From NCBI GenBank assembly GCA_038216175.1, contig JBBQQG010000008.1, positions 3,632 to 27,631 on the forward strand: DNA of 24,000 nt. Direction: 5' to 3'. The position numbers were made by a program, and so were the translations under genes. The stretch's first letter is position 1; each line of letters begins with the position of its first letter. The notes below the pieces were generated by a model. The model was not told the DNA's origin and did no database searches. It worked only from the letters and a program-made list of their open reading frames with translations. Below, piece after piece: positions 2,121 to 11,840 of the stretch. Source of the stretch: Candidatus Saccharimonadales bacterium (lineage in GTDB: Bacteria > Patescibacteriota > Saccharimonadia > Saccharimonadales > OMJO01).

Positions 2121-3371
2121 ATGAGGTTATCCCAACTTTTTACAAAAACGAGAAAAGAGGTTTCGACAGATGAAACTTCAAAGAATGCCCAGCTGTTAAT
2201 TAAATCTGGATTTATTTACAAGGAGATGGCTGGAGTTTATGCTTTTCTACCTTTGGGGCTCATCGTAATTGAAAAAATAAAAGCAATCGTCAGAGAAGAG
2301 ATGGATAATTTGGGGGCAAGTGAACTATCGATGACAACAATTCAGTCAAAAGATTTATGGCAAAAAACTGACAGGTGGGATGATAAAAACGTCGATGTTT
2401 GGTTCAAATCCGAATTGAAAAACGGATCAGAAATAGGATTTGGCTGGTCACACGAGGAGCCTATTACCAATATGCTAAGAAGTTATATTTCAAGTTACAG
2501 GGATTTACCGGTTTATGTTTATCAGTTTCAAAATAAACTCAGAAACGAGCTACGTGCCAAGAGCGGAATAATGAGAGGTCGTGAGTTTCTAATGAAAGAT
2601 ATGTACTCTTTTAGTTCAGATGAAGATAAGCATAAGTCTTTTTACGATAATACGATCACAGCTTACAATAAGGTTTTTGATCGCGTTGGCATTGGTAAAG
2701 ACACCTTTCTGACATTTGCGTCAGGCGGTGCATTTACACAGTTTAGTCACGAATTTCAAACATTAACAGATTCAGGCGAAGATGTTATTTATTTGCATAG
2801 ACAAAAGAAGATTGCCGTTAATAAAGAAGTACTTACTTCGGAAGTACTCGATCAACTGGGACTTAAACGAGAAGAGCTTGAAGAGTTAAAAGCTGCCGAG
2901 GTTGGCAATATTTTTAGTTTCGGAAGTATAAAAACAGATCAATTGGGTTTAAGCTATGTTGATGTAGATGGAAAAACGCGTCCGGTTATATTAGGATCAT
3001 ACGGAATAGGTATAAGCCGTCTCATGGGTGTGATTGTTGAATTATTCTCAGATGAAAAGGGTATTGTTTGGCCTGAAAATATCGCTCCAGCTAAAGTTTA
3101 TTTAGCTCGCATAGGAGAAAACAATGAAGTAATTACATCGGCAGATATGTTTTATAAAGTACTTACTGATAAAAATATTGAAGTTATTTACGATGACAGG
3201 GATATTAGAGCTGGTGAAAAGTTCGCTGATGCCGATTTAATAGGTATACCATATCGCGTTGTCATAAGTGATAAAACCCTTAAAAGCGGGTTAATTGAAG
3301 TAAAGAGGCGGAAAGAAAAAGAATCTACAAATATGTCAGAGAAGGAATTTATAAAAAAATTGGCTACCTAA
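2121..3371 (+). CDS. proS: Prolyl-tRNA synthetase, bacterial-type N-terminus and core but lacking the INS editing domain
   Basis: N-terminus MRLSQLF...SKNAQLLIKSGFI. Class II motif 2 region YQFQNKLRNELRAKSGIMRGREFLMKDMYSF. SHEFQ and GSYGIGISRL motifs and a C-terminal anticodon-binding region are present. At 416 aa it is about 150 aa shorter than E. coli-type ProRS. Confidence 0.9.
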   Translation: MRLSQLFTKTRKEVSTDETSKNAQLLIKSGFIYKEMAGVYAFLPLGLIVIEKIKAIVREEMDNLGASELSMTTIQSKDLWQKTDRWDDKNVDVWFKSELKNGSEIGFGWSHEEPITNMLRSYISSYRDLPVYVYQFQNKLRNELRAKSGIMRGREFLMKDMYSFSSDEDKHKSFYDNTITAYNKVFDRVGIGKDTFLTFASGGAFTQFSHEFQTLTDSGEDVIYLHRQKKIAVNKEVLTSEVLDQLGLKREELEELKAAEVGNIFSFGSIKTDQLGLSYVDVDGKTRPVILGSYGIGISRLMGVIVELFSDEKGIVWPENIAPAKVYLARIGENNEVITSADMFYKVLTDKNIEVIYDDRDIRAGEKFADADLIGIPYRVVISDKTLKSGLIEVKRRKEKESTNMSEKEFIKKLAT

Positions 3372-3955: not shown

Positions 3956-5470
3956 ATGGCTACACTAAAAGAGTTAAGAGACGAAAGACTGAGAAAGTTA
4001 GCCGAGATAAAAAAGCTCGGAATAGATCCTTATCCGGCAAAATCTAATAGAACGAATTATTGTCAGGATGTGATTGACAATTATAGTGATTTTGAAAGTA
4101 AACAAGTCACAGTAGCCGGGCGAATAACTAGCTTCAGAAAATTTGGTAAAATTGCGTTTATTGTAATTAAAGACCAGAGCGGTACACTACAACTTTTTTT
4201 AAAAGAAGATATCGTTGAAAAATTAAATCCGTCAGATTCCGCCATCGGAATGGATGAATTAAATCTGCTCGATATCGGAGATTTTATCGATACTACCGGA
4301 AAAGTAATAACGACAAAAACTGGCGAAATATCGGTCGAAGTTAGTAAAATTAGACTACTAACTAAATCTCTTCGACCTATGCCAACAAAGCAGGATGGTT
4401 TTACAAACAAAGAAGAGCGCTTAAGACGTCGATATATAGATATGAATGTAAATAAGGATGTATATGAGCGTTATATTCGCAGAAGCAAGTTTTGGCAGGC
4501 AACAAGAGAGTTTCTGATACAAAAAGGGTTTTATGAGATTAACATACCTGTACTAGAAGCCATAGCCGGCGGTGCTGATGCCAAGCCGTTTATCACTCAT
4601 ATGGATGCTCTTGATCAGGATTTTTATCTTCGAATTAGTCATGAACTCCCTTTAAAAAGACTTTTAGTTGGCGGTTATGAAAAAATTTTTGATATAGGTG
4701 CTAGATTTAGAAATGAGAACTACTCTGATGAACATTTACCGGAACATATCGCTATGGAATGGTATTGGTCTTATGCCGACTGGTACGACGGAATGAAGCT
4801 GACGCAGGATTTGGTAAGGTTCATTGCAGATAAGACATGGCAGACTAGAAAATTCAAATTAGCTAATGGTCAAGGAGTAGATTTAGGACCAGATAAACAA
4901 GACTGGTCTCGGATAAGTTTTGTAGAACTAATTAAAAAGCAGTATGGTTTTAATTGTCTTGATGTCACTTTAGAAGAAGCGGTATCGAAATTAAAAGAAA
5001 TTGGTGGGGAAGTTGAAAAAATTGATAATAAAGCCCGAGTAATAGATAAGTTATGGAAAAAAATTAGGGTTGAGATTAGTGGTCCGGCATTTTTAATCGA
5101 CATACCGGTTTTTATGCAGCCGCTTGCTAAGTTACAGCCGAAGGACGATCGACTGACTGAGCAGTTTAACCTTATATTGGGTGGAACGGAAGCTTGTAAA
5201 GCGTATAGCGAGCTGAATGATCCCATCGACCAATATAAAAGGTTTACTGAACAGCAGCAGCTACGTAAAGAGGGCGATGACGAAGCTCAAATGATGGATA
5301 TAGACTACGTTGAAGCGCTTGAATACGGTATGCCTCCTGCTTGTGGCTATGGTCATAGTGAGAGGCTTTTTTGGATGCTTGAAGCAGTTACAGCTAGAGA
5401 AGGGGTGCCATTCCCGCAACTTCGATTTGAGATTGATGATAACACCAAGAATTTATATCCTGGGATTTGA
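3956..5470 (+). CDS. lysS: Lysyl-tRNA synthetase, class II
   Basis: N-terminal RLRKL...GIDPYP followed by an OB-fold anticodon-binding region. Class II core motifs are present (FYLRISHELPLKRLLVGGYEKIFDIGARFRNE; GMPPACGYGHSERL). 504 aa. Confidence 0.93.
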   Translation: MATLKELRDERLRKLAEIKKLGIDPYPAKSNRTNYCQDVIDNYSDFESKQVTVAGRITSFRKFGKIAFIVIKDQSGTLQLFLKEDIVEKLNPSDSAIGMDELNLLDIGDFIDTTGKVITTKTGEISVEVSKIRLLTKSLRPMPTKQDGFTNKEERLRRRYIDMNVNKDVYERYIRRSKFWQATREFLIQKGFYEINIPVLEAIAGGADAKPFITHMDALDQDFYLRISHELPLKRLLVGGYEKIFDIGARFRNENYSDEHLPEHIAMEWYWSYADWYDGMKLTQDLVRFIADKTWQTRKFKLANGQGVDLGPDKQDWSRISFVELIKKQYGFNCLDVTLEEAVSKLKEIGGEVEKIDNKARVIDKLWKKIRVEISGPAFLIDIPVFMQPLAKLQPKDDRLTEQFNLILGGTEACKAYSELNDPIDQYKRFTEQQQLRKEGDDEAQMMDIDYVEALEYGMPPACGYGHSERLFWMLEAVTAREGVPFPQLRFEIDDNTKNLYPGI

Positions 5471-5522
5471 GTAATAAGGATATCAGACTGTTTATGGTAT
5501 TGCTGATCGCGTATACTAATGT

Positions 5523-6056
5523 ATGTATAGGTTTCATATGCAGCATCATTCCCCAAGAAATAATCTAAGCCGGGATCATAAGTTAGGACTTACTCTAGCA
5601 AGCTTTGCTTTCATGCTTTTACTGATTTCAGTGTTGGTAAATCACGGTAATAACTTAAAATCTAACAATTTAGCATCGTTTAGTTTAAATAATCAAACAG
5701 CAGTGCTAGGCGCTCAAACTAGTGCTATAACTAATATGCTTACAGTTGATAAATTATCTGTTTCAGATAGTTCAAATAAATCAGTAAAACACTATATTAT
5801 AAGTGTAACGATTACCAACCTTACCAACAAAACTATTATTATAAATCGGCAAAATCAATTTAATCTGGTAGACGATTTAGGCAATTTTTACACCACATCT
5901 AGCCGGAATTTATCGTCAAATCAACTGGCCGGCATTGTTGAGACTGGAAAAAATTCTAGCGGAAATGTTGAATTTGACATACCCAGCCCGGCTCACGTCA
6001 ATACCCTTAGATTCCAGATTGACCAAGACAGCGCGCAGATAAACGAATCGATTTAA
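5523..6056 (+). CDS. Membrane-anchored hypothetical protein with an extracytoplasmic beta-rich domain (tentatively DUF4352-like)
   Basis: Single N-terminal TM helix (LGLTLASFAFMLLLISVLV). It is followed by an S/N/T-rich linker and a domain with alternating beta-strand-like pattern (HYIISVTITNLTNKTIIINRQNQFNLVDDLGNFY...GNVEFDIP). The start is uncertain (ATG 5523 or ATG 5538). The family call is from memory and weak. Confidence 0.55.
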   Translation: MYRFHMQHHSPRNNLSRDHKLGLTLASFAFMLLLISVLVNHGNNLKSNNLASFSLNNQTAVLGAQTSAITNMLTVDKLSVSDSSNKSVKHYIISVTITNLTNKTIIINRQNQFNLVDDLGNFYTTSSRNLSSNQLAGIVETGKNSSGNVEFDIPSPAHVNTLRFQIDQDSAQINESI

Positions 6057-6116
6057 CTGGTATTATTTTTTGTAACTTTCGCTACAATAACAAATGAAAG
6101 AATTAAAAGGTAAATT

Positions 6117-6815
6117 TTGATAGAAGTTAGAAACATTAATAAAATTTATGGTAAGAAAGATAATGCTTTTAACGCGTTAAAAGACATTAATTTTTCTATT
6201 CCAGATGGTAGTACGGTAGCAATAGTAGGTAAAAGTGGTTCTGGGAAGTCTACGCTTATGCATATAATGAGTGGTCTGGAGCATCCTACAAGTGGTGAAA
6301 TCATTATTAACGGTAAAAATCTGCAACAATTAAAATCACGGCAGATGGATAATTTTAGAGCCACTGAAATGAGTTTTATCTTTCAGTCGTTCTTTGTTGA
6401 AGCAAATCAAACCTGCTATCAAAACGTTATGCTTCCACTTGAAATAGCAAAAATACCTTTTAAAGACAGAAGAAATTTAGTAAAAATAGCATTACAAGCG
6501 GTTGAACTTGATGACAAGATCGATAGCCAAGCTAGCAAATTATCCGGAGGTCAAAAGCAGAGACTGGCTATAGCCAGAGCTATAGTAAATAAGCCGAAAT
6601 TAATTTTTGCCGATGAACCAACAGGAAATTTGGACAGTGCCACCGGTGAACTTATTATTAAGCAGCTTTTTAATTTAAATAAATTACTCGGATGCACAAT
6701 TATAATTGTCACGCACGATCAGGAACTTGCTGACAGATGTCAGATTGAAATTAGAGTTAAAGACGGCATAGTAATTGAAATATTAAATCGGACCAATAAA
6801 AACAAGGGACATTAA
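6117..6815 (+). CDS. ABC transporter ATP-binding protein, MacB/LolD/FtsE-like subfamily
   Basis: Walker A GKSGSGKST, signature LSGGQKQRLAIARA, Walker B LIFADEPT and H-loop VTHD. TTG start preceded by AAAAGG 6 nt upstream. The stop overlaps the permease start (TAATG). Confidence 0.9.
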   Translation: MIEVRNINKIYGKKDNAFNALKDINFSIPDGSTVAIVGKSGSGKSTLMHIMSGLEHPTSGEIIINGKNLQQLKSRQMDNFRATEMSFIFQSFFVEANQTCYQNVMLPLEIAKIPFKDRRNLVKIALQAVELDDKIDSQASKLSGGQKQRLAIARAIVNKPKLIFADEPTGNLDSATGELIIKQLFNLNKLLGCTIIIVTHDQELADRCQIEIRVKDGIVIEILNRTNKNKGH

Positions 6816-8188
6816 TGTTTATTATAGATATTATTAAACGCTCGGGGCGAAGTTTAAAAAACGCAAAAGCTAGAACTCTTTTAACTGCACTAGCTATTGC
6901 GGTAGGTACTTTCGCATTAACATTAACATTGGCTGCCAGTAATGGTGCCCAGCACTTTGTTAGTAAAATTATTTCTGACAACTTTGACCCAGCTGAATTA
7001 ATAGTTGTGAAAGATGAAACAGTTCTTGGTCGTACAAATACTACTACTCCGCAAGAATATGATGAAAGTTTTGGTACAGTAGCTTCTAGGGCTGGAGCAG
7101 CGACTCAGATTAAAAGACTATCAGACGATGATCTTAATAAAATTAAGAATTTGCCATATGTCGAAAGTACCAGAATAGGTTTAACAGTTAGCCTTCAATA
7201 TATTACAAGACCTGGAATAAAAAAATACGTTGGTACTGCACAGGCATTTAGCCCGGCCCAAAATCCTGAACTACTGGCAGGTTCAATTCCAAAACCACTT
7301 GGCAATAACAAGTTGCTTTTACCAGAAGGGTATTTAAAAGCTCTCGGTTTTAGTAGTGCTGAGGATGCAATCGGTAAATCTATTAAAGTGGTAGTTAAAA
7401 AATCATTTGATCAATCTTCAATTGCCAGTCTACTACAATCAGGAATCTCAGGTGGTTCAGTGCAGTTGCCAAACCCAACAAATACCGGATCACTTGTTGA
7501 ACAATACACGGTAGCAGGCGTTATGAAAAAGCCAACATCAACTCAGCCCGGTACTGAACTTTACATATTTATTGGTAGCGACGATGCACAGCGACTTAAC
7601 GATTTTACGACTAAAAATACTTCTGATTATCATCGTTATCCATTTGTCTATGCCAGAATAAAAAATGGAAAGGACGCTACGACTCTTAAAAAAGCTCAAA
7701 GTAAACTATCAACGTTAGGATATTCTTCACAAAGCGTTGCTGACACTGAAAAATTTCTGACTCAGATAATTTCAATTTTACAAGGGATTGTTGCAGCATT
7801 TGGTGCTATAGCAGTGATTGCATCTGTATTTGGAATAGTAAACACAATGTATATAAGTGTGCTTCAAAGAACTAGAGAGATAGGTCTTATGAAAGCTTTA
7901 GGTATGAGGAAACGAGATATTGGTAGACTGTTTAGATTTGAAGCTGCTTGGATAGGTTTTTTAGGTGGAATTATCGGATCGTTGCTGGCATTTATTTCTG
8001 GTACATTATTAAATCCGTGGATTACTAAAAAACTAGCACTTGGTGACGGGAATAGTTTACTAATTTTCAAACCGCTACAAATAGTAATTCTAATCATAAT
8101 ATTAATAATTATTGCAACTTTTGCCGGATTACTACCGGCCAGAAAAGCCGCTAAATTAGATCCTATCGAAGCATTAAGAACAGAATAG
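6815..8188 (+). CDS. ABC transporter permease, MacB/FtsX family with a large extracytoplasmic domain
   Basis: N-terminal TM helix (RTLLTALAIAVGTFALTLTLA), then about 270 aa of predicted extracytoplasmic sequence. The C-terminal 3-TM FtsX domain follows (VLQRTREIGLMKALGMRKRDIGRLF...LPARKAAKLDPIEALR). Translationally coupled to the ATPase. Confidence 0.88.
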   Translation: MFIIDIIKRSGRSLKNAKARTLLTALAIAVGTFALTLTLAASNGAQHFVSKIISDNFDPAELIVVKDETVLGRTNTTTPQEYDESFGTVASRAGAATQIKRLSDDDLNKIKNLPYVESTRIGLTVSLQYITRPGIKKYVGTAQAFSPAQNPELLAGSIPKPLGNNKLLLPEGYLKALGFSSAEDAIGKSIKVVVKKSFDQSSIASLLQSGISGGSVQLPNPTNTGSLVEQYTVAGVMKKPTSTQPGTELYIFIGSDDAQRLNDFTTKNTSDYHRYPFVYARIKNGKDATTLKKAQSKLSTLGYSSQSVADTEKFLTQIISILQGIVAAFGAIAVIASVFGIVNTMYISVLQRTREIGLMKALGMRKRDIGRLFRFEAAWIGFLGGIIGSLLAFISGTLLNPWITKKLALGDGNSLLIFKPLQIVILIIILIIIATFAGLLPARKAAKLDPIEALRTE

Positions 8189-8245
8189 TTGTCAAAAACT
8201 TAATTACCGATTATTTAAGCTGCTGAAAAGATTATTTTAAGTAGT

Positions 8246-8269
8246 TTATAAAATATTAATATTTTATAA
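8246..8269. repeat. Perfect 24-bp palindrome TTATAAAATATT/AATATTTTATAA in the intergenic region upstream of the heliorhodopsin gene
   Basis: Checked base by base: positions 8246-8257 are the exact reverse complement of 8258-8269, and the flanking pair 8245/8270 mismatches. The composition is all A/T, so the chance expectation is raised in this genome. Confidence 0.6.
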
Positions 8270-8316
8270 CTCGACAATTTAAGTAACTATTACAACTACG
8301 CAATATTGCAAACAGA

Positions 8317-8325
8317 TGTTATAGT
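8317..8325 (+). promoter_or_regulatory. Extended -10-like element TGtTATAGT, 6 nt upstream of the heliorhodopsin ATG (predicts a leaderless mRNA)
   Basis: TG at 8317-8318 and TATAGT at 8320-8325, with the ATG at 8332. There is no SD. A 10-bp palindrome GCAATATTGC (8300-8309) lies in the spacer/-35 region. Confidence 0.35.
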
Positions 8326-8331
8326 TTAATT

Positions 8332-9111
8332 ATGAGCAAAACAGAGGATTATAAAACGCAGCTACAGCGTTTGTATCAGGGCAGTATTGTAGTTTATTTA
8401 GGACTAGCAATCTTAGCTGGCTTTTTAATGGGAGAAGCATCGTTTCAGTTGACGCTTACTTATCTGGCAAAGGACGATCTTTTGAGTAAAGCAAACACGG
8501 TTTTTGCTCCAGCATCACATGCTTTTTTCGATATTCAAATGAGATGGGTTTTGGTCGTAATATTGGTATTATCGGCAGTTGTTCCGGCACTTTATCAGTT
8601 CTATTTGAAGAAGCGATATGAACAGGGTATAAAAAATAAATCTCTTACTCTGCGTTGGATAGATATGGCGATTACCGCTGCATTAATGGTAGAAGTTATT
8701 GCTCTGTTATCGGGAATCCAAGATCTGATGATTCTTAAAATTATCGGCGGAGTTGTCGTGATTTCATGCTTACTTGGATGGTTAGCTGAAAAACAATATG
8801 CTGAGTTGAAAAAACCAGTTTGGACAACATATATTCTAAGCTTAATTTTAGGTGTATTACCCTGGTTATTAATTATTACTAGTGCTATTGCAACTCCTTT
8901 TTATTCTTCAGTTCGAGCTCCGTGGTATTTGTATGCTCTCTATGCAGTATCGTTGATTACGTTCATCGCAGTATATTTAAATCAGTACAGATTCTTTAAA
9001 AAGGTAGGTCAATGGAAAGACTATTTGTTTGTAGAACGAAATTATCTGCTTATTAGTTTGTTCTCGAAAATAACGTTCGCTCTTGTGCTTATTATTGGTT
9101 TAAGAAAATAA
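8332..9111 (+). CDS. Heliorhodopsin-family 7-TM retinal-binding protein (putative)
   Basis: 259 aa with about 7 hydrophobic helices. Several blocks match my recollection of heliorhodopsin 48C12. LTYL matches the TM1-2 loop. LRWIDMAITAALMVEVIALLSGIQDL matches FRWVEYSLSSSVMIVLIAQICGIADI. LLGWLAEKQY matches LFGWLQEKY. GVLPW matches GIVPW. GQWKDYLFVERNYLLISLFSKITFAL matches GKWSNYLRGERAYIVLSLVAKSALAW, and this last block contains the Schiff-base lysine (K246 here, codon 9067-9069). Confidence 0.78.
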   Translation: MSKTEDYKTQLQRLYQGSIVVYLGLAILAGFLMGEASFQLTLTYLAKDDLLSKANTVFAPASHAFFDIQMRWVLVVILVLSAVVPALYQFYLKKRYEQGIKNKSLTLRWIDMAITAALMVEVIALLSGIQDLMILKIIGGVVVISCLLGWLAEKQYAELKKPVWTTYILSLILGVLPWLLIITSAIATPFYSSVRAPWYLYALYAVSLITFIAVYLNQYRFFKKVGQWKDYLFVERNYLLISLFSKITFALVLIIGLRK

Positions 9112-9119
9112 ATATAACT

Positions 9120-10370
9120 ATGTCGGAACAGGTGAAGATTGAAAAGCTTGTTCAAGGTGGTCAAGGTTTGGCGACACTATCTGATGGACGAAAGATTTTT
9201 ATTTGGAATGTTTTACCAGGTGAGGTAGTAGAATTTAACATAATAAAAAATAAACGTCAGTATGCTGAAGCGATAGCAACTAATATAATAAATGAATCTA
9301 AATATAGAATTTTACCAAAAGATTATAATTTTTTAGCAACGTCACCTTGGCAAATCATTAACATTAATGAAGAAAACAAAATAAAAAAAATGATCACGCG
9401 CGAAATATTCCTGCGAGAGGTAATTGAACTAGAATCATTTGAAATTACATCCAACGACCGCGAATTTAATTATCGAAATAAAATGGAATACAGTTTTTGG
9501 GGAGACGAAGAAGGCATACATTTAGCTTTGCACTCTCGTGGTAGTCATCAAAAAGAAATTGTTGAAGGCAGTGCACTGGCTATGCCAGGGATTAATAAAG
9601 GAGCTATTTCATTATTACAGTCTTTAAATAAATTAGGTGTTAGAGCTGCTCAGTTAAAATCAGTGATAATTAGGTGTACTCAAGAAAATCAGACAGTCGC
9701 AGCCCTATTCGTCAAAGACAAAACATTTCCAAAAATGACGCTGCCGTCCGAGTTAGCTGGTTTACAAGTGTATTTTTCAGATCCAAAAAGCCCAGCTTCT
9801 ATAGTAAGCGGCGATATTCAGGAATTAGGCAGCCTCATTTTAAAAGATAGACTTCTTGACATGAATTTATCATACCGAGTTGACTCTTTTTTTCAGATCA
9901 ATGTTCCGGTTTTTGAACAAGTACTGAAATTGTTATCGAAAAAGTGCAAATACCAAAATGTCGTAGATATGTACAGCGGAGTTGGAGCTATCGGATTATC
10001 AATTGCCAGTAAAAGCGCTGATTTAATTGATGTTAATCCTATTAATGTGGAATTAGCAAAAAAGAATGCCTCGGAGAGTAAATTAAAAGTAAATGTTATT
10101 AAGTCTAGCGTAGAAACTGCACTTCAATATATAAATACCGAAAAAACAGTTATATTTGATCCACCTCGGGCAGGATTAAATACTAAAATCATTAATACAT
10201 TGATAAGTGTAAAACCTAAGGAGATAGTATATTTATCTTGTAATCCTGTTACTCAGGCAAGGGATGTAAAGTTTCTAAACAAACTGTACAAAATAAAATT
10301 ATTTGAAATTTTCAATTTTTTCCCACATACTCCGCATATCGAAAGTTTAGCTATACTTAGTCTTATATGA
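9120..10370 (+). CDS. RNA (uracil-C5)-methyltransferase, TrmA/RumA (RlmD-like) family with an N-terminal TRAM domain
   Basis: SAM-binding motif VVDMYSGVGAIGLSIA, motif IV IFDPPRAGL and catalytic-Cys motif VYLSCNPVTQARD. A TRAM-like N-terminus is present (KLVQGGQGLA...PGEVVEF). The four Fe-S-cluster cysteines of E. coli RumA are not evident. The gene starts 8 nt after the heliorhodopsin stop. Confidence 0.85.
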   Translation: MSEQVKIEKLVQGGQGLATLSDGRKIFIWNVLPGEVVEFNIIKNKRQYAEAIATNIINESKYRILPKDYNFLATSPWQIININEENKIKKMITREIFLREVIELESFEITSNDREFNYRNKMEYSFWGDEEGIHLALHSRGSHQKEIVEGSALAMPGINKGAISLLQSLNKLGVRAAQLKSVIIRCTQENQTVAALFVKDKTFPKMTLPSELAGLQVYFSDPKSPASIVSGDIQELGSLILKDRLLDMNLSYRVDSFFQINVPVFEQVLKLLSKKCKYQNVVDMYSGVGAIGLSIASKSADLIDVNPINVELAKKNASESKLKVNVIKSSVETALQYINTEKTVIFDPPRAGLNTKIINTLISVKPKEIVYLSCNPVTQARDVKFLNKLYKIKLFEIFNFFPHTPHIESLAILSLI

Positions 10371-11053
10371 AGCTACATCGATTTTTTATTGATCCGAAGG
10401 TGGAACTTAAACAAGATTTTTGGATTCATGACGAACGTTTAATCCACCAATGGCTCAAAGTACTTAGATATAGTGCTGGGCAGCAATTAATTCTATTCGA
10501 TGGTGCGAATCACGATAGGCTGTATAAAATTCAAGAAATTAAACTAGACGAAGCTCATCTAGTGCTAATAACCGAATTTGAACGAAAATTACCAGTGAAA
10601 AATATATATTTATTCTGGTCTCTACTCAAGAAAGATAAAAATGATTGGGTAATTCAAAAAACTACCGAATTAGGCGTAAGTCATTTCATTCCTTTGATTT
10701 GTGATCGTACTGAAAAAACCGGTTTTGATGAGCCAAGAGCGAAAAAAATTATCATAGAAGCTACTGAACAGTGTGGTCGAAGTGATATTCCTAGTATTCG
10801 TGAGCCGATAACGCTGCAAACTGCAATTTCAGAATTTAATGGGAAAATACCGCTTATTATGTGCCAGCAAGGCGATAATCAAACTGAAACTAATTTTGAA
10901 AATGTTGGCATATTAATTGGCCCAGAAGGCGGTTGGTCAGACGATGAGAGGAATATATTTGTAAATTCCAACATTCCTTCATTTAACATACATGATTTTA
11001 CACTTCGTGCCGAAACAGCCGCCATTGCAGCTGTTGCAAAGCTGATACAATAG
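10367..11053 (+). CDS. rsmE: 16S rRNA (uracil1498-N3)-methyltransferase RsmE
   Basis: N-terminal MKLHRFFI and a PUA-like domain. C-terminal SPOUT motifs are present (IGPEGGWSDDE; LRAETAAIAA). ATGA start/stop overlap with the preceding methyltransferase gene. Confidence 0.88.
   Translation: MKLHRFFIDPKVELKQDFWIHDERLIHQWLKVLRYSAGQQLILFDGANHDRLYKIQEIKLDEAHLVLITEFERKLPVKNIYLFWSLLKKDKNDWVIQKTTELGVSHFIPLICDRTEKTGFDEPRAKKIIIEATEQCGRSDIPSIREPITLQTAISEFNGKIPLIMCQQGDNQTETNFENVGILIGPEGGWSDDERNIFVNSNIPSFNIHDFTLRAETAAIAAVAKLIQ
11043..11051 (+). promoter_or_regulatory. Extended -10-like element TGaTACAAT, 9 nt upstream of the nuclease-gene ATG
   Basis: TG at 11043-11044 and TACAAT at 11046-11051, overlapping the rsmE stop codon. 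The ATG is at 11061 with no SD in between. Pattern only. Confidence 0.3.
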
Positions 11054-11060
11054 TTGCACG

Positions 11061-11840
11061 ATGAATTATTGGACTGAACGTAGTATACCTTATACACCAG
11101 GACAATCAGAAATCTTTAAACTATCGCGAAGTAAAATCGAGCTGTTTACTCAGTGCCCAAGGTGTTTCTGGTTGGACGCTAGGCTAAAAATCAAACGGCC
11201 AAGCGGTCCTCCTTTCCAGATTAATAAAGCAATAGACGAACTATTTAAAAAAGAATTTGATATGTACCGACTAAAAGCTAAACCTCACCCTTTAATGTTA
11301 GAAAATAAAATAAAAGCTATTCCTTTTAGTCATAATGATCTTGATAAATGGCGCCATAATTTTACAGGCATAACAACGCTTCACAAATCTACTAATTTAC
11401 ATATTTTTGGTGCAATCGATGATGTGTGGATCGATAATGACGGCGAATTGATAGTAGTCGACTACAAGGCTACTTCTAAAAATGGTGAAGTTAATCTTGA
11501 TGCCGATTGGCAGATAAGTTATAAAAGGCAACTTGAAGTATATCAATGGCTTTTGCGACAAAATGGATTTAAAGTTAACAACACTGGTTACTTCGTCTAT
11601 ACCAATGCCAGAACTGATTTGGACGGCTTTTACGACAAGGTTGAGTTCAGAACAAAAGTAATCCCATATCAGGGAGATGATAGCTGGGTAGAATCAACTT
11701 TGTCTAGAATGAAAGTGTGTCTTGAGGGTGATTTACCAGAAGTTGGAACGGCAGCAATGGGTGGTGAATGCGATTATTGTTTATATGCTAAAAAACGTAC
11801 GGAACTGACTATAAATTACTTCAGAAATATTAAAACTTAA
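11061..11840 (+). CDS. PD-(D/E)XK nuclease family protein, Cas4/RecB-like with terminal cysteine pairs
   Basis: RecB-type nuclease motifs are present: GAIDD (D120/D121), VVDYK (D134-x-K136) and QLEVY (Q157...Y161). Cysteines C32-x2-C35 sit near the N-terminus and C237-x2-C240 (plus C220) near the C-terminus. This is reminiscent of the Fe-S staple of Cas4/AddB nuclease domains. Confidence 0.75.
   Translation: MNYWTERSIPYTPGQSEIFKLSRSKIELFTQCPRCFWLDARLKIKRPSGPPFQINKAIDELFKKEFDMYRLKAKPHPLMLENKIKAIPFSHNDLDKWRHNFTGITTLHKSTNLHIFGAIDDVWIDNDGELIVVDYKATSKNGEVNLDADWQISYKRQLEVYQWLLRQNGFKVNNTGYFVYTNARTDLDGFYDKVEFRTKVIPYQGDDSWVESTLSRMKVCLEGDLPEVGTAAMGGECDYCLYAKKRTELTINYFRNIKT

Follow-up and report, generated by a model that had tools for sequence, protein, structure and literature searches.

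The stretch of DNA analysed here, hereafter the window, comprises 24,000 nucleotides of contig JBBQQG010000008.1 (assembly GCA_038216175.1) from a Candidatus Saccharimonadales bacterium. At 8332..9111 on the + strand it carries a gene of the heliorhodopsin (HeR) family, light-sensing proteins of the membrane with retinal as chromophore; the gene belongs to a Saccharimonadales-specific branch of that family. We hold it rather probable that the product is a genuine HeR-family photoreceptor using scavenged retinal, a light sensor whose partner is not readable from gene order.

The open reading frame (ORF) runs from ATG to TAA and encodes 259 aa; its start codon is backed by homologs, 72 of 81 beginning at the same alignment column. 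It matches the Pfam profile Heliorhodopsin (PF18761) with E=1.8e-39 and 136 bits (cut-off 26.7 bits), over profile positions 16-237 of 242 (222/242), and the NCBIfam HeR equivalog NF038020 with 129.1 bits (cut-off 100 bits). The Pfam profile of type-1 rhodopsins (Bac_rhodopsin) gave no match to this ORF up to E=1. Among structures in the PDB, the top match by sequence is 7clj, the E108D mutant of TaHeR; TaHeR entries give E=1e-24 to 3e-25 at ~25% identity (6is6, E=1.3e-24), and 48C12 follows with E=7e-20 (6su3), 6uh3 being also among the best. The motifs on which the earlier note, made from the letters alone, had based its HeR call are all present at the places it gave: R108-W109-I110-D111, G149-W-L-A-E153-K-Q-Y, G174-V-L-P177-W178 and E235-R-N-Y-L-L-I-S242-L-F-S-K246. 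By sequence and predicted structure, 8332..9111 thus encodes a genuine member of the HeR family, as that note had proposed. The assignment itself is not new: NF038020 being passed above its cut-off, NCBI's own hidden Markov model (HMM), and therefore a standard annotation pipeline, would already name this gene.

The fold predicted for the protein is that of a HeR. An AlphaFold2 (AF2) model, computed from an input alignment of 79 sequences (predicted local distance difference test 91.6; predicted TM-score 0.89), displays the seven transmembrane (TM) helices that the earlier note had expected (7-32, 70-101, 106-126, 132-159, 164-192, 198-223 and 231-256), together with the two-stranded beta-hairpin of the AB loop (strands 37-43 and 62-69) typical of HeRs. 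When this model was compared with the PDB by Foldseek, the top 10 matches were all HeR structures, with TM-scores of 0.80-0.90, type-1 rhodopsins reaching ~0.5; the two prototypes with which a structural comparison had been suggested score 0.83-0.89 (6is6, 6su3 and 6su4). Counted on the predicted loops, Lys and Arg make up 10 of 32 cytoplasmic residues and 5 of 50 extracellular ones, a positive-inside distribution that favours the N-terminus-inside topology in the model. With TaHeR (6is6 and 7clj, TM-score 0.86/0.89) the protein shares the seven TM helices, the AB beta-hairpin, the RW of helix C, the Pro-Trp of helix E and the helix-G signature E-[RK]-x-Y...S-x-x-x-K, and the chain length (259 residues) is similar. 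TaHeR is archaeal (Thermoplasmatales), whereas our protein comes from a bacterium of the Candidate Phyla Radiation (CPR). The structures of 48C12 (6su3, 6su4, 6uh3) give TM-scores of 0.83-0.85.

To place the functional residues, the protein and its relatives were mapped onto TaHeR and 48C12 and compared with the list of residues conserved in all HeRs given by Kovalev 2020 (PMC7049168). Nine of the 17 residues listed there are identical in our protein and two are replaced conservatively. It keeps S81, Y96, R108, W109, M119, E153, P177/W178, Q218, Y231, E235/R236, S242 and K246, which correspond in 48C12 to S76, Y92, R104/W105, M115, E149, P172/W173, Q213, Y226, E230/R231, S237 and K241. In 48C12, R104/W105/E149/Y226/E230/Q213 form a cytoplasmic polar cluster and Pro172 makes a pi-bulge in helix E (PMC7049168); in our protein the cluster R108/W109/E153/Y231/E235/R236/Q218 is intact and, with P177-W178, nearly invariant across the branch. 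Moreover, none of the 32 positions that are invariant or nearly so in the 79-sequence alignment is changed in the protein.

The chromophore attachment site belongs to the conserved part. K246 (codon AAA, 9067..9069, +), on helix G, aligns with the Schiff-base lysines K238 of TaHeR and K241 of 48C12 and is the predicted retinal-binding lysine, in agreement with the earlier note. S242 (9055-9057, +) completes the SxxxK motif, here SLFSK, and aligns with S234 of TaHeR and S237 of 48C12. At the counterion site the canonical R-W-x-E has Glu (E107 in 48C12, E108 in TaHeR) and our protein an Asp, D111 on helix C (8662..8664, +), the predicted counterion. From the alignment it is plausible that this carboxylate is the functional equivalent of the Glu: E-to-D counterion mutants of both 48C12 and TaHeR yield a pigment whose spectrum is unchanged (bioRxiv 10.1101/2020.06.24.168591), and the TaHeR E108D protein, in which pigment still forms, reproduces precisely the Asp found here.

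Our protein is not isolated. A large protein database holds 80 relatives at 37-64% identity, besides an identical protein (P0001), all with the HeR Pfam domain; the few with a name go mostly under Candidatus Saccharimonadales, Saccharibacteria or Patescibacteria. In species-representative genomes, 20 of 20 loci belong to Saccharibacteria-type metagenome-assembled genomes or to records labelled only 'bacterium'; the genome is of the reduced Saccharimonadales/CPR type, in line with the reduced genome that the earlier note had recognized. In a library of representatives at 50% identity the HeR family amounts to 944 clusters at E<=1e-3, of which 119 match our protein at E<=1e-30; by this sequence measure the branch is therefore a sizeable share of HeR diversity. 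The canonical H-H-RW-E pattern appears only among the weakest of the 150 representatives listed, at ~105-120 bits. Across the branch, the positions of His23, His80, Asn101, Tyr108 and Asn16 carry respectively F/Y, P/S, variable residues, M/L/F and H/N/Y, and position 111 is mostly D; canonical HeRs recovered alongside carry a histidine at both 22 and 85. Judged by this alignment, the rebuilt residues characterise the branch as a whole and are not peculiar to the gene at 8332..9111. The branch has also acquired near-invariant residues of its own: K136, E121, R195, W198, Y201, N237, D48 and M33. Many members (P0003, P0008-P0010, P0012 and others, of 290-330 aa) bear an N-terminal extension of 40-90 residues, rich in Lys, Thr and Ala and predicted to be cytoplasmic, which is absent from our protein and its closest relatives.

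An indication that the site works with a Schiff base comes from covariation within 211 branch sequences. Lysine stands at position 246 in 174 of them (82%). In these lysine-bearing members residue 111 is D in 114 and E in 19, and an acid is found only at 111 in 129, only at 242 in 24, at both positions in 4 and at neither in 17; position 242, on helix G, precedes the lysine by four residues, like the D in the DxxxK of type-1 rhodopsins. Acids at 111 and 242 are thus mutually exclusive (Fisher p=1e-14, kinship ignored). The nature of residue 246 matters as well: when the lysine is replaced by arginine (20 sequences) the helix-C acid is kept in 18, and when it is replaced by something else (17 sequences) the acid is lost in 15. 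Such a pattern is expected if residue 246 interacts, as one half of a charged pair, with a single carboxylate; in the lysine-bearing majority, our protein included, the two would be protonated Schiff base and counterion. That helix C and helix G should exclude each other as the seat of the counterion is understandable only if there is a protonated Schiff base to balance.

According to the reading that we favour, all-trans-retinal taken from the host or from the environment would form a protonated Schiff base with K246, for which D111 would be the counterion, S81, T115 and S242 surrounding it. Light would isomerise the retinal, and a long-lived state would alter the cytoplasmic face, where the conserved polar cluster lies. 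By analogy with other HeRs, which modulate partners such as glutamine synthetase, photolyase and the ABC exporter OmrDE (PMC11109279), the altered face would in turn modulate a partner protein, making of this HeR a slow-cycling light sensor. Ion pumping is improbable in this reading.

Several points weigh against this reading. The Schiff-base cavity formed by His23, His80, Asn101, Tyr108 and Asn16 is highly conserved within all HeRs (PMC7049168), and all five residues are replaced here, mostly by less polar ones: His23 by Y22 (8395-8397, +), His80 by P85 (8584-8586, +; the two codons delimit 8395..8586), Asn101 by L105, Tyr108 by M112 and Asn16 by Y15. In TaHeR numbering, the replaced residues include His23, His82, Asn102 and Tyr109, and Ser112, S111 in 48C12, has become T115. 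The proposed signalling 'latch' of 48C12, Gln26/Ser242/Trp246, is absent (L25, I247 and L251 in our protein); Q216 is lost too, M141/I142 near the beta-ionone ring have become S145/C146 and the dimer residue Y179 has become S184 (residue roles from PMC7049168). The earlier note had overlooked these departures from the hallmarks, namely D for E107, Y for His23, P for His80, L for Asn101 and M for Tyr108. Because five proton-handling residues are replaced and the latch is missing, extrapolation from 48C12 or TaHeR to our protein is risky. With the cavity rebuilt in this way, the proton-release step is probably unlike that of the prototypes and, as far as sequence can tell, the photochemistry, including the M state, probably differs from that of both. 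The 211 sequences used for covariation, for their part, join a 90%-cluster and a 50%-cluster set that overlap, and the statistics drawn from them ignore kinship. In 37 of the 211 (18%) the lysine is missing from a full-length protein, so the scaffold can persist without retinal. About 25 HeR-anchored loci and 80 loci anchored on the neighbouring PD-(D/E)XK nuclease gene yielded no conserved partner gene. Lastly, the search for domains of carotenoid or retinal biosynthesis, which found none in the ORFs of at least 80 aa, was confined to the window, the rest of the genome being unseen.

The negative result for the window agrees with the earlier note, which had seen no such gene there and had supposed that the chromophore is scavenged. 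The first part stands for the window; as to the second, with no retinal-synthesis genes in the window, scavenging is the expected source, and it would match what is described for type-1 rhodopsins of Saccharibacteria. Members of this group have rhodopsins without blh, and their type-1 rhodopsins quickly take up external retinal (Jaffe et al. 2022, PMC9296517). By analogy, the HeR described here may be supplied in the same way.

The lysine-less sequences also bring in another explanation, in which the protein has a retinal-independent membrane role (structural, as a scaffold, or in partner binding without light) and the lysine is a tolerated ancestral leftover. Full-length proteins without lysine are what this explanation would predict, and the 18 of 20 K-to-R variants that keep the helix-C acid could form an internal Arg-carboxylate pair substituting for the Schiff base. 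Lysine-less forms occupy the same genomic slot as the others, one locus (L017) has a K-to-R copy beside a canonical HeR, and the organism probably cannot make retinal. On the other hand, our protein keeps K246, D111, S242, S81, M119, W109 and P177/W178, 82% of the branch keeps the lysine, and the mutually exclusive placement of the counterion needs a protonated Schiff base. We regard a role without retinal as unlikely for the product of 8332..9111.

The charged residues E121 and K136 raise the question of transport. Their codons (8692-8694 and 8737-8739, delimiting the stretch 8692..8739, +) lie in helices C and D; TaHeR has V118 and L133 and 48C12 V117 and L132 at these positions. The E/K combination is present in 130 of 211 branch sequences, E without K or R occurs only twice, and hydrophobic pairs such as V/I and L/V also co-occur (Fisher p=5e-7, kinship ignored). 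In the AF2 model E121 lies five residues before the end of helix C (126) and K136 four residues after the start of helix D (132), at matched depth. The simplest reading of covariation and helix depth is a putative salt bridge between E121 and K136 near the extracellular surface. By alignment, the branch has added a charged pair close to where helices C and D end on the extracellular side and has largely refilled the water-filled cavity with Y15, Y22, P85, L105 and M112. Alternatively, the additional charges, with D67, R71 and R195 also conserved in the branch, could serve a light-driven or light-gated transporter of protons or other ions, like the viral V2HeR3. In canonical HeRs the extracellular half is entirely hydrophobic, and the few subfamilies bearing charges there, such as the viral subfamily 2 of Kovalev, have been set apart as distinct in function (PMC7049168); proton transport by a viral HeR is on record (PMC11109279 and the available part of PMC12873467). 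Viral HeRs break the hydrophobic rule as our branch does, and one of them also lacks His23 and His80 (PMC7049168). Their charge is a Glu at the Leu202 position of helix F, whereas here it is on helices C and D, and they lack Pro172, which our protein keeps as P177. E121 and K136 stand ~4-5 residues from the helix ends and E almost never occurs without K, which fits a stabilising salt bridge better than a path for conduction; the Schiff-base cavity has become less polar, not more, and no continuous titratable chain is evident. Transport is in our opinion a small chance, slightly smaller than that of a retinal-free role.

Returning to the light sensor, its partner might be sought among neighbouring genes. 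The arrangement described in the earlier note is correct: an ABC ATPase (6117-6815, +) and a MacB/FtsX-type permease (6815-8188, +) lie upstream, the pair matching Pfam ABC_tran, MacB_PCD and FtsX and, below the cut-offs, NCBIfam LolD, MacB and ADOP-like, and 8 nt (ATATAACT) separate the HeR stop TAA from the ATG of an RlmD-like 23S rRNA m5U methyltransferase gene (9120-10370, +), followed by RsmE (10367-11053, +), both identified by domain and NCBIfam searches, and by the PD-(D/E)XK nuclease (11061-11840, +). A functional tie to the MacB module or the rRNA methyltransferases is not supported by comparison of related loci, in which these neighbours come and go.

In particular, the HeR could be specialised in the light-dependent control of the MacB-type ABC transporter encoded next to it. 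The gene is on the same strand, directly downstream of the ATPase and permease genes, with the same order in L001 and L050, and regulation by a HeR of an ABC exporter encoded upstream of it has been shown in an actinobacterium (PMC11109279). In that system, OcHeR-OmrDE (Nat Commun 2024, PMC11109279), the HeR up-regulates a multidrug exporter, its gene also follows the ABC genes on the same strand, and regulation by protein-protein contact through cytoplasmic loops was proposed. Yet OmrDE consists of heterodimeric half-transporters with fused transmembrane and nucleotide-binding domains, unlike the separate ATPase and MacB/FtsX permease of the window. Here the permease gene is parted from the HeR gene by an AT-rich spacer of 143 nt (8189..8331), not operon-tight. 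Consensus promoters or terminators were not found on its + strand, sites being no more frequent than in shuffled sequence, though in a CPR genome a scan of this kind tells nothing either way. The ABC/MacB pair is lacking in ~14 of 25 HeR-anchored loci and in all nine HeR-positive complete slots of the control described below; it adjoins HeR directly only in the window, its near-duplicate L001 and L050, with usually msrA and other genes between them elsewhere, and it occurs without HeR in L040. The pairing not being conserved, we rejected MacB/ABC as the partner, and we give a regulator of this transporter only the slightest probability of all the readings considered. The rRNA methyltransferases were likewise rejected, the RlmD-like enzyme and RsmE being each present in part of the loci only: according to the genome, the gene just downstream of HeR is RlmD, RsmE, PD-(D/E)XK or a hydrolase of the HAD family.

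A neighbour missing from the window seemed a better candidate. In most relatives msrA sits in the place of the 143-nt spacer: it is directly upstream of HeR in 8 of 8 contigs looked up and in 23 of 25 distinct HeR-anchored loci, in either orientation and as two MsrA types that are 40-43% identical to each other. The HeR could thus work with MsrA in a light-triggered response to oxidative damage; an oxidative-stress role of HeRs has been proposed (PMC8612252, as cited in the available part of PMC9166423). The window is one exception, with no msrA, nor was a remnant of it found in the spacer or elsewhere in the window (tblastn best E=0.66). Since gene order is highly conserved in this lineage, loci were sampled independently of HeR, by the PD-(D/E)XK anchor, giving 80 metagenome loci that were annotated by BLAST and HMMs. 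The two-by-two test was limited to the 19 control loci with the whole interval from the lysyl-tRNA synthetase (LysRS) gene to PD-(D/E)XK on the contig: 4 hold HeR and MsrA, 5 HeR only, 5 MsrA only and 5 neither (odds ratio 0.8, Fisher p=1.0). The adjacency of HeR and MsrA is therefore positional; the two occupy one variable slot optionally and independently of each other, and MsrA was rejected as a partner on this control. Splitting by HeR type brought no rescue, MsrA neighbouring both canonical and query-type HeRs, and no paper linking HeR and MsrA was found in the open-access library searched. A joint function with MsrA is accordingly very unlikely, hardly more credible than one with MacB. 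Gene neighbours give no reliable information on the function of this HeR.

The slot itself tells more about the origin of the branch. The interval between LysRS and PD-(D/E)XK (5471-11060 in the window; L002-L031 and L032-L111 for the other loci) is a hot spot of gene turnover in an otherwise rigid string of housekeeping genes, with PD-(D/E)XK as its fixed right-hand border. Its residents are ABC/MacB, DUF4352, a 149-aa hypothetical protein, DUF427/NTP_transf_9, msrA, HeR, RlmD-like, RsmE, HAD hydrolase, asparaginase, NYN and DNA glycosylase. As for HeRs, the slot contains across Saccharimonadales either a query-type HeR, a canonical H-H-RW-E HeR (~27-32% identical to ours), a lysine-less derivative (L052, L058, L063, L072 and L086) or nothing. 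At L017 (CAZPWF010000003.1) two HeRs stand in tandem, a canonical H-H-RW-E...S-K one at 4961-5770 and a query-type one with K246R at 5824-6750. This suggests that the branch arose by duplication inside the slot, followed by differential loss. At the same locus, the upstream msrA is seemingly split into two pieces.

From there one may go further and propose a Saccharimonadales-specific paralogous HeR lineage, of tandem origin in the slot, which has rebuilt its chromophore site and forms a functionally distinct class. In this proposal the counterion, an Asp, would have moved repeatedly from helix C to helix G, the histidine/water cavity that accepts the proton would be gone, an E-K pair would have been gained, and in about one fifth of members the lysine would have been replaced, mostly by Arg with the same acid. 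We put it forward tentatively, as possible though not probable. If true, it would imply a different photochemistry, a heteromer with the canonical HeR or a partly light-independent function, and the lineage would be a natural experiment in counterion relocation.

The remainder of the window (~36% G+C, every sizeable ORF on the + strand) is made of the conserved string. Upstream come an RseP-like M50 protease, an Rce1-like protease, prolyl-tRNA synthetase (ProRS), GreA, class II LysRS, a DUF4352 protein, the ABC ATPase and the permease; after the nuclease follow seryl-tRNA synthetase, HPF, SecA, an M16 peptidase, a peptide chain release factor, FtsE and FtsX, and the window ends with a CHAP-domain protein, an S41 protease and the start of pyrG. 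The 5' part of this CTP synthase gene, from ~23.0 kb and continuing past the window end, was missing from the ORF list. No tRNA or Rfam regulatory RNA was found in the window. The LysRS following GreA (3956-5470, NCBIfam lysS_bact) is of class II, whereas other Saccharimonadales have a class I enzyme (lysS_arch, TIGR00467) at the same syntenic place: on one side of the comparison stand L004 (3375-4907), L002, L006, L007, L009 and L011-L015, and on the other L008, L010, L020, L022, L024, L026, L028, L030 and L031. This looks as if an essential enzyme had been replaced in situ by a non-orthologous one within a single order. ProRS (2121-3371) is short, with 416 aa and no editing-domain insertion; its counterpart at the same position in L010 has 575 aa and carries the PF04073 tRNA_edit insertion. 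The PD-(D/E)XK protein (11061-11840), unusually conserved, with a mean column identity of 75% over 23 loci and invariant cysteines C32, C35, C237 and C240, matches Cas4 weakly, which suggests a Cas4/AddB-like iron-sulfur nuclease.

HeRs were already known in Saccharimonadia. The available part of Chiriac et al. 2022 (Microbiome, PMC9166423) reports 80 of them, CPR HeRs forming 'new clades', and Patescibacteria were included in the HeR neighbour analysis of Chazan et al.; the novelty claimed in the earlier note was in this respect overstated. In these Saccharimonadia HeRs, of the same lineage and family as ours, the presence of SxxxK and the reverse topology were checked, and the common motifs given in that part of the paper are SLVAK, SLIAK and SFVAK, to be compared with our SLFSK. 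The Asp counterion and its relocation, the disappearance of both histidines, the E/K pair, the lysine-less members with their acid-retaining K-to-R variants, and the fixed slot with its changing HeR types were not found in that text or in the other open-access papers searched, supplementary tables excluded.

For the window itself, 8332..9111 is an ordinary and correctly recognisable HeR gene. The case of MsrA, adjacent in 23 of 25 loci, indicates that tight adjacency can be purely positional in CPR genomes with conserved gene order, and 'operon partner' inferences for HeRs need a control of this kind. Although HeRs are abundant, their role has been established in a handful of instances only, so that any lineage marked by a distinct signature is of help. 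The variants of this branch (Asp counterion, switching between helices C and G, histidine loss, K-to-R with the acid kept) make a natural test set for the handling of the Schiff-base proton, and they also allow asking whether the HeR fold has a role free of light. The organism, a host-attached one, is most likely unable to produce retinal itself; a functional pigment would then imply that the chromophore passes from cell to cell.

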